Below are positions 44,930 to 54,280 of a stretch of 64,000 bases of DNA, in pieces. The notes under the pieces are model-generated. The model saw nothing but the letters and a program-made list of their open reading frames with translations. It made no database searches and was not told the origin of the DNA. Position 1 is the first letter of the stretch; each line of letters begins with the position of its first letter. Position numbers and translations under genes: made by a program. This DNA is from Candidatus Versatilivorator sp. (lineage in GTDB: Bacteria; Acidobacteriota; Terriglobia; Versatilivoradales; Versatilivoraceae), in assembly GCA_965207735.1 (NCBI GenBank), contig OZ242296.1:1472001-1536000 (forward strand), read 5' to 3'.

Positions 44930-45370
44930 GGCCTTCCCGCCAGGGATCACTGTGGTGAGAGCGACCCCGGCAAGGGGGACAAGGGGTGTCCCGACCCCTG
45001 TCCCCCTTTGCCCTCCCCCGTGGCGCACCAGCGGCCAAAATGGGGGGGCGCTCCCTCCACTTCCTCCCCCTCCTGTGCGGCGCGACGACGCGCCGTGCGA
45101 GGGGGTGGACACGCGATGCCGACGCCCCACGGGGCTTTACCCCATAGGATTTGGGCAATCCGTGCCAACCCGCGTCCAATGCGGGTTTCCGGGAACATCC
45201 TGGACCACGACGGCGAGGGCTTCGTCCTCTGAGAGTGGAGCGTTGGGGTTGTTGAAGGGACGCGTCACTTCATGCGCCACCTACGCGCGCCACCTCCCTT
45301 CTGAAAGGGTGACACCCATACGACGCCACGTCCTTGACCCCCGGAGGCGGAAATCGTCGATCATTTCGCG
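44930..45370 (+). ncRNA. Structured non-coding element, copy 1 (identity and functional strand unknown)
   Basis: Homologous to 49792-50221(-) and 53910-54280(+); hairpins conserved. Confidence 0.6.
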
Positions 45371-45481
45371 GCTGTTGGAGGCCGGGATTTTCTGCTCCAT
45401 TGAACGATCTTCTCCATGACGACATCGAAGGCGCCGCGACGTGGGAAGGGTTTCCCAATCGTTACCACACCTGCCAGCATG

Positions 45482-46390
45482 TCATTCCATCTCCCATTCA
45501 ATCAACTCCGGGATCTTGTCGCGAACGGTGAGCGTTGTCCACATCGCCGAGTGATCGCTCCACCCATGTTTGCGCCATTCGTGGTAGTAGCCGCAGTCCA
45601 CGACCTCGAAGTGCCTTGAAACGAAAGTATGGTCGAAGCATCTCGGGTTCTTACGCGTGGTGTAGTGGGTGACGGGGGTGGCTGTCTCAAAGCCATGAAG
45701 GTCGCGATAAGCATTTCGCAGACCGTGCTGCGACGCCCCGGCCAGGACCGAACGTACACCATTGGCCCGCTCCATATTCCGGCGTCGGACTCCAAACTGG
45801 GTTTTCCAGCCCCGGATGGAGGTACCTCCATCCTCGTGAATTTTCTCTCCAAAAGGCACGATCTGCCCCGATTGTCGGAACCGCTTGGGCTCGTTGAAGT
45901 CTCCCGTCAGGATGCGGGGCGAGTCGAGCGCACGGCGTAGCGTTGCCGACAGCACGGTGAAGGTGTCGATCTTCCGCCAGCCATTACCGGAGCCGTTGGG
46001 GATGTGCGCGGTGAACACGTCGATATCCTGCTCGTCGGGCAGGGAGACCGTGGCACGCGCCAGCAACTCCGGATAAGGTGCGCGACGGCGCCAACGATTG
46101 CCGCTAGCTTTCATCGGCCAGCGACTCGCAATCAGGCACTGGTAGATTTTTCGCTTCAACCTGCGGATTGGCGGTAATTTCCGCATTGCCGTGGGTGGGG
46201 CCTTCTTGCCGCTCCAGTGGGCGTGGACAAGGCCGATGTCGGCGAGACGCAGCGCCAAATCGTCCGCCAGGGTCGTCTTTACCTCCTGCAACGTCACGAC
46301 GTCCGGTCTTGCGGACCGGATCGCCTCGACGATGTTATCGAGTTGACCGGACAGGGATTGAAAGTGGACGTTCCAGGATAAGATTAGCAT
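45482..46390 (-). CDS. Endonuclease/exonuclease/phosphatase (EEP) family protein
   Basis: SWNV, DVVTLQEV, TGDFN, FDHTF, SDH. Confidence 0.85.
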   Translation of the reverse strand: MLILSWNVHFQSLSGQLDNIVEAIRSARPDVVTLQEVKTTLADDLALRLADIGLVHAHWSGKKAPPTAMRKLPPIRRLKRKIYQCLIASRWPMKASGNRWRRRAPYPELLARATVSLPDEQDIDVFTAHIPNGSGNGWRKIDTFTVLSATLRRALDSPRILTGDFNEPKRFRQSGQIVPFGEKIHEDGGTSIRGWKTQFGVRRRNMERANGVRSVLAGASQHGLRNAYRDLHGFETATPVTHYTTRKNPRCFDHTFVSRHFEVVDCGYYHEWRKHGWSDHSAMWTTLTVRDKIPELIEWEME

Positions 46391-46656
46391 GGGATGTTTC
46401 CTGAGTAGAGGCGGCGTAGACGATCAATGCTGCTCACTGTTTCATTAGGCACCGCCTAAATCCGTGAGCCTGACCGGTTCGGCTGGGTTTACTTGACCTC
46501 CAACGTACCGTAGCACCCCAAGAAACCGTCACAGCCCCATTTCTCTCTCAGAGGCAAGCCTCGCGGCCTGTGGGCAGCGTGAACCACGTGAACCCTTCTG
46601 CATCGACCACGAACCTCAAATAGACTCAGTTCGCCGACCGGTCAATGTGTCCACGT

Positions 46657-47520
46657 CTATAGGTAATTCTTTCTGAATCGGGCCTTGACTTCTTCTGCCT
46701 CGACAATCTGCTTCACTTCCGAAAAAGATTCGGCAAGGTCGTCAACTCCCTTTATATTTTTCCTAGCTTCGATGATGAACTCCTGTTCCAGTACCTCAAT
46801 TAAAGCCTTGAATCCGGCGAATTCCATTCGCCGGATTTGTTCCCAGATTTCCTTAGGAAGGATTCCACCGACTATGCCCTTCAGATGCAAGTCTCGTTTC
46901 CAGCTCACGCTCTCACCGAATTCCATTCCTTTACTCATCAAGAATCCGAGCCTGCCGTAGGTGCTGATCAATCCATTGTATATCTTCCACAGCCTTCCAC
47001 TCACAAAGATCCTCGTCTCATCGAGTTGGGTGGGTTTAGTGCCCACTCCGAAAACGATTTCCATGCCAGCGCAAACCTTCTCGTCCTTTGGCGTTATCTT
47101 TTCCGCCACTCTCTGAAACGAGGAATACTCATTGAGAATGCTGCGGATTTTTTCATTCGAGTCATGGGGGCTACTGATGACAGATTCAAACTCGGTTTCT
47201 GTGAGTAAAGCTTCGACGGCTACAAGCGGTGCAAATTCTTTCTTAACACGCAAAATGTCCTGCCAAAGATTGTTGATCGATTCAATAGTCTTGATTCGAT
47301 AGCTATCACCAATGCGACTTGCTATCTGCAGTGAGTTGACTAACTCCGTAGATTGCAACTCAAGCTTGGCTTCGAGATGTTTAATCTCTTGGTTTTGCGA
47401 ATGTTCCAGTCGCTTGATAGCAACGTCCATCAGTTTCGGGAGGAGTAATTTGAATGTGGCCAATAGACTAAGAACTACTGCTATTGTGCCAGCGACGAGG
47501 CCTTGTAGCGTATCAAGCAT
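46657..47520 (-). CDS. Hypothetical protein with N-terminal TM anchor
   Basis: Long low-GC ORF; hydrophobic N-terminus then helical region. Confidence 0.65.
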   Translation of the reverse strand: MLDTLQGLVAGTIAVVLSLLATFKLLLPKLMDVAIKRLEHSQNQEIKHLEAKLELQSTELVNSLQIASRIGDSYRIKTIESINNLWQDILRVKKEFAPLVAVEALLTETEFESVISSPHDSNEKIRSILNEYSSFQRVAEKITPKDEKVCAGMEIVFGVGTKPTQLDETRIFVSGRLWKIYNGLISTYGRLGFLMSKGMEFGESVSWKRDLHLKGIVGGILPKEIWEQIRRMEFAGFKALIEVLEQEFIIEARKNIKGVDDLAESFSEVKQIVEAEEVKARFRKNYL

Positions 47521-47681
47521 TGAATCATTGCCTTCCAGATAGATTCCTGACAGCCTATCCGGGAAACGTCCTAGTAGCTTGTTAGATACTTCCCTGTGGT
47601 TGATACACGGCGCCTGCGCACTCTCATCGCGCAACAAATTGTCCCGTCAGGGGGGGTGGGCATAGCCTTGTCGTCCAAGGC

Positions 47682-52657: not shown

Positions 52658-52689
52658 CAAGGAGACTTATCCCGCGCTGATGCATACAC

Positions 52690-52919
52690 TGTACCGCCCC
52701 CGATTTCTTGGACAGATAACACCCTCCAAACTCAAGCCGCCGGTTTTAGCGCAAGGCGTTGTCTTGCCTGAACCGGAGGCTCGAAGCCGAGACGCTCAAT
52801 CAACCAGTGCTGGTTGTAGAGCGAGCGAAACTCTTCCAGTGCCCCAACCAGTTCCGGTACCGACTGGAAGTGGCGTACCCACAGCAGTTGCTCCTTGACG
52901 GTTCTGAAGAAGCGTTCGG
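52690..52919 (-). mobile_element. IS3-family transposase 3' fragment with right IR
   Basis: ERFFRTVKEQLLW...YNQHWLIERLG; ends ...tgtccaagaaatcgggggcggtaca. Confidence 0.8.
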
Positions 52920-53595
52920 TGACCTCCCCCCCATAAAACGGTCCACTTCGAGAGTGAGTTTTCCGGTACAACAAAGGAGGAGAACTCACCATGAAGCGGA
53001 AGTGATTCACTGAAGAACAGATCATCGGAATCCTGAAGGAAACCGAGGCAGGGGCGAAGAAGCAGGAGATCTGCCGGAGGCACGGGATCTCGGAACACAC
53101 CTTCTATCGATGGCGGTCCAAGTACGGCGGGATGGCGGTGTCAGAGGCGAGGAAGCTGAAGGGGCTCGAGGCTGAGAACCAGAAGCTGAAGCAGCTTTTG
53201 GCCGATGCCCATCTGGATAACGCGGCCCTGAAGGAACTGCTGTCAAAAAACTGGTAAGGCCCGCAGCACGCCGCCGAGCCGTGGACCACGTGATCGGGCT
53301 CGGGATGTTGAGTCAGCGGCGGGCCTGCCGACTCTCGGGAATCCACCGATCGGTGGCCCGTCATCAGTCTCAATGCGGAAGCGACAGCGAACTTCGAGAA
53401 CGCCTGAAGCAGTTGGCGGCCGAGTATCCGCGTTATGGATACGAGCTGCTGCACGGGATGTTGAAAGCTGAGGGGCTCGTGGTGAACGAGAAGAAGACGT
53501 ATCGCATCTACCGCGAAGAGAAGCTCCAGGTCAGGCGGAAACGACGCAAACGCCTATTGGCACGGGACCGGGTTCGAATGCCGATGCCAGAGGGG
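52920..53595 (+). mobile_element. Truncated IS3-family (IS407-like) element with pseudogenised orfA/orfB
   Basis: TG-starting left end; orfA MKRK*FTEEQIIGIL (premature TGA at 53003); A6C slippery site at 53245; orfB YPRYGY...YREEKL cut at ~53595. Confidence 0.85.
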
Positions 53596-53766
53596 ACGGA
53601 CCATCCCCGAGAGGTGATTGAGGCGGACTTGGCGCATGTGGTGCGCAACCGTGTCGAGGCGGCCTATGCCCGCTCCGACCTGTTCGAGCGCCGGCGCATG
53701 TTGATGGACGACTGGGCGCGTTACCTGGCCGAGGGGGCGGGGGAGGATCTGGAGCCCTTGGAGTAA
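53596..53766 (+). pseudogene. C-terminal integrase fragment fused in frame to IS3 orfB
   Basis: TDHPREVIEADLAHVVRNRVEAAYARSDLFERRRMLMDDWARYL, nearly identical to 63425-63560. Confidence 0.85.
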
Positions 53767-53909
53767 AGAGGCCCAAGGGGATCGGTGGCGAGAACCAGGT
53801 CAGGCAGGGAAACATCTCCCAAAGAGAACCAGGGATCGAGCCACACCCGAAAGCCCACGACCGTCAAGGCCAGGTTGACGAGAATGACTTGGCCCCAGGT
53901 CTTCATTTC

Positions 53910-54280
53910 GGCCTTCCCGCAGGATCAATGTGGAGGGAGCGACCGAGAAAAGGGGGGTAAAGGTGTCCGGAGGCCTGTCCGGCTTTACACTTTCTCGTGC
54001 CGCTCCCTCCATCTGCACCCCTCTCCTGCGACGCGCCGTTACGCCGGGCGGGGAGGGGGACACGCGAGGCGCAGGATCACTTCGCTTTTTTTAACAGCAG
54101 ACGCGGAAAATCCGTGTTGTACCGCGTCTGATGCGGCGTTTCGGGGAAGCCTCCGACCACAACGGCGAGGACTCCGCCCTCTGAGAGAAGCGCGTCGGGG
54201 TTGTCGAAATCAGGTCCACCCCCCCGTCTGAAAGGTGGACACCCCTATGACGGCACGTGCTTGACCCCCGGAGGCGGAAA
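53910..54280 (+). ncRNA. Structured non-coding element, copy 3
   Basis: ggccttcccgcaggatcaatgtggagggagcg ... cgctccctcca ... cttgacccccggaggcggaaa. Confidence 0.6.

Follow-up and report, generated by a model that had tools for sequence, protein, structure and literature searches.

A repeated DNA module in Candidatus Versatilivorator is a probable origin of transfer of an Acidobacteriota integrative conjugative element family

What is a structured non-coding element doing three times over in one stretch of an Acidobacteriota genome? The stretch, hereafter the window, is 64,000 nucleotides of Candidatus Versatilivorator sp. (assembly GCA_965207735.1, contig OZ242296.1, positions 1,472,001 to 1,536,000). 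An earlier note, made from the letters alone, had described three diverged copies of the element with conserved hairpins, and had left open whether they encode a large structured RNA or form a folded DNA signal of an integrative element family. All three copies, with their ordered sequence blocks, were found at the places and on the strands that it gave: copy 1 at 44930..45370 (+), copy 2 at 49792..50221 (-) and copy 3 at 53910..54280 (+). Their pairwise identity is 63-68%. The outer stem has 10 of 12 positions paired in copy 1, 11 pairs in copy 3 and 18 perfect pairs in copy 2, where the note had counted a perfect 17 bp, and on either strand copy 2 folds better than its 100 shuffled versions (z -5.6 and -3.8). 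Judging from sequence comparison and from analogy with known systems, the module is probably the origin of transfer (oriT) of a family of integrative conjugative elements (ICEs) of Acidobacteriota, shared with smaller integrase-bearing islands that would hitchhike on them.

A profile built from the three copies gave 81 nhmmer matches across the genome (5.26 Mb), of which 47 extend over nearly the full length. The three copies are thus real without being the total, and the window shows one corner of a genome-wide family. A P4-type tyrosine integrase match lies within 3 kb of 39 of the 47 copies, as against 6.7% of 2000 random sites. Five copies follow an intact version of an unannotated gene for a protein of ~315 amino acids, here called X, 36 overlap a remnant of the X 3' end, and five abut the start of virD4, the gene of the coupling protein. 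Gene X enters the element at what the earlier note had taken as its 3' end, and the final codons of X, on the opposite strand, occupy the last ~100 nt of the element; the statement that the copies share no substantial open reading frame fails for this part, and copy 3 directly abuts a virD4 start. Four of the five intact X genes belong to integrase-X-element units of ~2.7 kb, which lack mating-pair genes, and the fifth sits in the one complete ICE of the genome. On the best reading, the islands with integrase, X and oriT in this genome are mostly decayed. Targeting of tRNA genes was considered and dropped, the majority of copies lying away from them.

The complete ICE (G000 ~1839600-1863500) runs in the order integrase, primase-helicase, VirB3, B4, B9, B10, B6, B8, X, element, VirD4, VirB11, RepB primase, ArdC and a further gene, here called Y. 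The non-coding module therein lies directly beside the coupling protein gene and a candidate relaxosome gene of a type IV secretion system (T4SS) element. With the X alignment, 63 GTDB loci were retrieved, mostly from Acidobacteriota and with Ca. Versatilivorator the closest. In 29 of the 30 loci whose X has at least 56% identity, X is immediately followed by the full element. Among 63 more distant loci (a set that includes some duplicates between searches), X is followed in 39 by a perfect inverted repeat, its core fixed and its spacer 24-81 nt long, with core-repeat scores of 14-24 versus at most 10 in 30 shuffles. The distant genomes L171 and L172 have their genes arranged as virB8, Y, X, repeat, small open reading frame, virD4, virB11. 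Of the 77 X loci, 45 were long enough to be classed, those of the genome under study being labelled by hand: X and its element precede virD4 in 22, follow an integrase in 19, where mating-pair genes are again lacking, and do neither in 4. The other 32 were too short. Integrase-linked X proteins nest among the ICE ones at two places in an approximate tree. The element is present in 13/13 same-genus genomes and in 0/17 other genomes of the family, X in 31/61 relatives, and Y in 18/61 relatives and 5/13 genomes of the genus. Y occurs in full elements only, and in this genome it is single-copy and confined to the ICE. A scan of JGI metagenomes returned 1 locus, and a search of 301 genomes with a bare 8+8-base pattern was dropped, its frequency being near the control rate. 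One further ICE gene, between integrase and primase-helicase (G000:C1:1841389-1843395; L074:5390-7396), encodes a 669-aa protein with no Pfam or Atlas match.

One short motif is repeated within the module. Beside the X stop codon, this 7-9-bp sequence stands once inverted and two or three times direct, and it stands twice more inside the large hairpin, ~200 bp from the proximal repeats. Its sequence differs between subfamilies and recurs within the inverted repeat. In the alignment of 77 distinct copies (mean identity 71%), covariation is strongest between columns that are identical, not complementary, and lie 12-13 bp apart. The 3' hairpin of the earlier note and much of its enclosed hairpin are made of this motif, repeated inverted and direct. 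Parsing succeeded in 59 of 77 copies; in these the proximal motif scores 6.36 against the inverted motif of the same element copy versus 5.56 when shuffled, exceeding 2000/2000 shuffled pairings. The match to its own distal copy is weaker (3.98 versus 3.72, reached by 7/2000 shuffles), as expected for mosaic copies. Identical direct and inverted repeats of this kind would be the signature of protein-binding sites. In L055-L057, L061 and L073 the repeat module has grown into long tandem arrays, and in L055 the region is duplicated.

The opposite end of the element carries a 4-bp mini-hairpin; in 66 of 77 distinct contexts its loop is of the G..A type when read on the reader's strand (that of the earlier note, antisense to X and virD4). 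The loop follows the rule G-N-A or G-N-N-A; no mini-hairpin was called in 64 sequences, mostly distant or cut short. Where virD4 follows, the mini-hairpin lies on the template strand immediately before it. The purine run at this end of the element might be taken as a mere ribosome site for virD4, a reading that we rejected because the run is kept where virD4 is absent. In L041 and L046 an identical sequence is inserted at one position in the mini-hairpin, ~300 nt after the X stop; its 5' end looks like that of a group II intron. According to two studies, mini-hairpins with G..A loops stabilise DNA far more than RNA and are found at priming and single-strand promoter sites (PMC13037366, PMC8567376).

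Could the element nevertheless act as a large structured RNA carried by these elements? Single copies fold well, the outer stem shows compensatory changes (10 cells versus 0/500 shuffles, with only 2 pairs in a 25-row set), and the third stem of the earlier note, stem iii, leans toward the reader's strand with 18 G-T against 5 (34 copies). Over the 77 copies, however, the RNAalifold consensus is weak on both strands (-27 and -16 kcal/mol) and consists of the outer stem and scraps, while the top covariation comes from the identical repeats. The earlier note had proposed that a bias of G-U over A-C pairs would reveal the strand. Neither the outer stem nor stem iv shows such a bias: G-T and A-C are each as infrequent as the other in the former (955 Watson-Crick, 7 G-T, 5 A-C and 68 other cells in 69 copies; 432, 2, 2 and 6 in 34 distant copies) and about equally common in the latter (35 G-T and 41 A-C in 64 copies). 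The element overlaps the last codons of X, and its G-N-A/G-N-N-A loop rule suits DNA mini-hairpins better than the GNRA loops of RNA. Rfam gave no match over the copies at the gathering score or at E<=1; the sole match at E<=1, RsmY (E 0.5 at 47514), lies outside them. A structured RNA is thus very improbable. Because the stems lack a G-U bias, the covariation is one of identical repeats and the end is a G-N-A mini-hairpin, the element behaves as DNA, and a DNA module is the most likely reading. The alternative that the earlier note had offered, an oriT or single-strand signal of an integrative family, gains from position, phylum-wide linkage and architecture.

Two other explanations accept a DNA module and assign it a different task. 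One is that it is the replication origin of the excised element, X being an iteron-binding initiator and the islands mini-replicons, with transfer secondary. Direct repeats at 12-13-bp spacing together with a winged-helix protein are iteron-like, and the ICE encodes both a primase-helicase and a RepB primase; mini-hairpins, moreover, are reported at priming sites (PMC13037366). Against this, 22 of the 45 long loci that were classed have the element within the transfer operon, immediately ahead of virD4, the consensus shows no AT-rich unwinding region, and the islands carry neither primase nor helicase. The other explanation is that the module is only regulatory or priming, an X operator plus a single-strand promoter or primase signal before virD4, with the true oriT elsewhere. 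The position of the mini-hairpin on the virD4 template strand and the regularity of its loop recall RSF1010 ssiA and the phage N4 promoters. Yet the whole module is kept in 47 copies although a virD4 start is retained in only 5, the most distant loci have the large repeat without the mini-hairpin, and the mini-hairpin is present in L174, which has no detected RepB. We regard a replication origin as unlikely and a purely regulatory or priming region as marginally more so.

The oriT reading draws further on what X and Y appear to be. X has no match in Pfam, NCBIfam or PDB sequence searches and no relative in PLSDB, while its profile matches 2183 cluster representatives; in the Atlas, the named family nearest to it is Replic_Relax, at 0.85. 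A structure model (predicted local distance difference test, pLDDT, 81) contains a winged helix with Z ~8 (MarR-type Z 8.1) and, toward the C-terminus, a region whose nearest structure is the SdaI nuclease domain (Z 7.8, root-mean-square deviation 3.9, 118 residues aligned); a single-sequence model of this region, with a pLDDT of 49, was set aside as poor. X is accordingly predicted to be a winged helix joined to a restriction-nuclease fold that lacks the catalytic acids. The aspartate and glutamate of the PD motif are missing in 77/77 proteins, which have a hydrophobic residue after the proline and Y, F or H at the glutamate position, these positions being assigned by analogy with Y. X thereby lacks the PD-(D/E)xK catalytic motif of a MOBC relaxase, as far as aligned sequences can tell. 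Few parts of X vary as much as its helix-turn segment (rank 10 of 301). When repeats were called by position in 60 loci, the association between X windows and repeat sequence reached a best r of 0.215, equalled in 10 of 1000 permutations, with helix-turn windows at ranks 1, 3, 5, 6 and 7 of 300 and wing windows at 2 and 4. This lends moderate support to a recognition helix of X that tracks the repeat sequence.

Y, by comparison, retains the acids that X has lost (D 29/29, E 29/29) together with the proline of the motif (P 28/29), and we infer that it is the relaxase of the ICE and putatively a member of MOBC. Profiles of X and Y share the winged helix alone, weakly (probability 21%), and a prediction of an X-Y complex scored 0.00, which counts neither for nor against an interaction. 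The CloDF13 record looked frameshifted in its mob region and gave no usable MobC for comparison. Replic_Relax is the Pfam family that has been equated with MobC (PMC5357655).

Taken together, these features suggest how the module may work. X would use its winged helix to bind the short variable repeats, and the nick would be made by Y, in the large inverted repeat or close to it. Of the two strands, the reader's would fold once single-stranded, and its mini-hairpin would act in priming or as a promoter. For Y, VirD4 and the channel, the integrase-X-element islands would depend on a resident ICE, and X, as a specificity factor, would decide which islands are carried. By analogy, then, the module would work like a MOBC-type oriT with a specificity layer of the SmpO kind, and the islands like relaxase-less hitchhikers.

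The closest likeness is to the MOBC oriT of pAD1-type plasmids. In pTEF1, typed as MOBC, five direct repeats and a nested inverted repeat lie between the coupling protein and relaxase genes (as read by eye), and the related TraX is reported to bind five direct repeats 70-120 bp from nic (PMC12857230). Both systems have direct repeats about one helical turn apart, placed away from a large nested inverted repeat, and both adjoin a VirD4-type coupling protein gene and a gene of restriction-nuclease type, a type that is predicted in the case of X. They differ in that no sequence similarity was shown, and in that the Acidobacteriota elements have two predicted nuclease-fold genes (dead X, intact Y) where the plasmids have one. 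The Acidobacteriota repeats also vary by subfamily, recur inside the inverted repeat and stand ~200 bp from it; moreover, the module ends in a G-N-A mini-hairpin and is integrative, not plasmid-borne.

The specificity layer recalls the oriT subtypes, SmpO and oriT mimics of the pWBG749 system, in which a conserved core is reported to be accompanied by subtype-specific sites that an accessory specificity protein reads, and hitchhikers outnumber helpers (PMC8136818), much as here the element is found in all 13 same-genus genomes and Y in fewer than half. The present system differs from it: the reader would be X, of ~315 residues with a predicted winged helix and nuclease fold, and the hitchhikers, integrase islands and not plasmids, bring a copy of X with them. 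Similar islands, integrase-bearing, with an oriT but without relaxase or mating apparatus, many per genome and with defence cargo (here Zorya II, TIR-like and HEPN), are the iOriT elements and relaxase-less integrative mobilizable elements reported in two sources (bioRxiv 10.64898/2026.01.13.699239; PMC5704250). The former describes them for six nosocomial species; the present ones differ from that account in their Acidobacteriota host, the accessory gene beside the oriT and the 47 copies in one genome. The short G-C stem and G..A loop of the mini-hairpin, in an ICE with a RepB-family primase, resemble RSF1010 ssiA and DNA mini-hairpins (PMC8567376, PMC13037366), although the mini-hairpin takes up only ~16 nt of the element, has a shorter stem and is present also without detected RepB. 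No description of the element was found in the literature, including work on Acidobacteriota conjugative oriT or MOBC, subscription papers and bioRxiv supplements being outside the coverage.

Several results weigh against an oriT served by X and Y. Y lacks a lysine at E+2 (0/29), an invariant lysine standing further on; it falls below the cut-off of Replic_Relax PF13814 (19.9 versus 25.3 bits), with a weak match in 6/29 members (best E 1e-4); and the profiles of X and of Y have no similarity to the pTEF1 relaxase, nor has Y as a single sequence. In sponge-type ICEs the distance between Y and the element is ~6-9 kb, which leaves room for another oriT near Y. The fold Z-scores of X are at or near the stated background level of the tool, and Foldseek with the X model returned nothing at E<=0.001, giving weak rows only, several of them nucleases. 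A first helix-repeat test, with an automatic motif call in 48 loci, was not significant (r 0.19 versus a permutation maximum mean of 0.18); both this test and the positional one control for overall identity only, and both motif calls are noisy, which is why the support they give is only moderate. No core repeat was called in 24 of the 63 distant loci, several of which have frameshifted genes or a repeat placed further out. Finally, no attachment core was defined, and the sequencing-run contigs X1/X2 showed no clear circle or excision joint; they are identical to the unique parts of the window but end at repeats.

If the oriT reading holds, a defined oriT that has 47 copies in this genome and recurs in all 13 same-genus genomes would explain the movement of defence cargo between these bacteria and provide a marker for finding islands. 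Neither X nor Y rises above a Pfam cut-off, so the ICEs would count as relaxase-less T4SS loci and the islands as immobile. Were X a dead-nuclease specificity factor, it would represent a new way of building a relaxosome, and the loci would supply dozens of natural protein-site pairs for studying the evolution of transfer specificity. A bolder proposal, which we hold tentatively and at less than even chances, is a two-component relaxosome of restriction-nuclease type, widespread in Acidobacteriota, in which the dead paralogue X reads a reprogrammable 7-9-bp oriT barcode and licenses the nuclease Y, so that a minimal integrase-X-oriT island, supplying reader and barcode itself, could use whatever ICE is resident, irrespective of its oriT subtype. 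Paired variants of helix and repeat would then constitute a natural recognition code.

The three window copies themselves are decayed relics in an island cluster, none with an intact X. In copy 1, the terminal mini-hairpin (44932..44947, +; 4-bp stem, G-N-N-A loop) is followed by the large inverted repeat (44952..45060; arms 44952-44963/45049-45060), whose inner hairpin holds two motif copies 12 bp apart (44987, 44999). Its repeat module at 45262..45315 (-), with direct copies at 45262, 45274 and 45287 and an inverted one at 45309, comprises predicted X-binding sites and overlaps a remnant of the X 3' end (45281..45403, -; tblastn E 1.6e-6). A P4-type tyrosine integrase C-terminal remnant (49526..49704, -) adjoins copy 2, and an X 3'-end remnant (49748..49888, +; tblastn E 3e-5 to 5e-5) runs into it. 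The repeat module of copy 2 lies at 49849..49890 (+; inverted 49849-49857, direct 49869-49877 and 49882-49890), its large inverted repeat at 50089..50200 (perfect arms 50089-50106/50183-50200, motif copies inside at 50144 and 50156) and its mini-hairpin, with a G-C-A loop, at 50205..50219 (-). Copy 3 is a deleted version that has lost one proximal repeat (arms 53931-53941/54001-54011; motif pair 53964, 53976). The virD4 start that it abuts comprises the first 44 codons (53775..53906, -; E 1e-11, 68% identity to the full ICE gene). Immediately ahead, at 52993-53763, an IS3-type transposase fragment is joined in frame to an integrase C-terminus (53590..53763, +). The same island cluster contains a separate internal fragment of gene X (58647..58823, -) and an N-terminally shortened P4-type tyrosine integrase (62535..63629, +) of the same family, 92% identical to the L002 integrase.

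Other repeats accompany the islands. A motif near an island end (44642..44659, strand not assigned) resembles an integrase arm site, and 21 of 34 genome matches to its pattern lie within 5 kb of an element copy. At the left edge of the island there is a short dispersed repeat (44476-44522), the surrounding 44441-44660 corresponding to 129 BLAST pieces in the genome; in contigs of other samples this repeat is found in tandem with differing 17-22-nt spacers, like a small array. Beside copy 2, a solitary palindrome (49739-49762), perhaps a solitary repeat unit, resembles a type I-E repeat of CRISPR (clustered regularly interspaced short palindromic repeats). Its pattern occurs as 7 single units genome-wide, several adjoining element copies, and the same pattern revealed no array.

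Between the copies (45482-48902 and 50465-51664, both -) the cargo comprises an EEP-family nuclease, a Swt1-like HEPN protein and a TIR-like effector. Further cargo of the island cluster is a type II Zorya operon (ZorA, ZorB, ZorE) at 58998-62103 (-), with PADLOC E-values down to 1e-157. Also in the cluster, at 55779-58253 (+), is a gene for an 824-aa protein with duplicated N-terminal domains and low-density lipoprotein (LDL)-receptor class B repeats. Elsewhere in the window, an Acido-Lenti-1 RNA (Rfam RF01687), unrelated to the element, is found at 40672-40717 (+).

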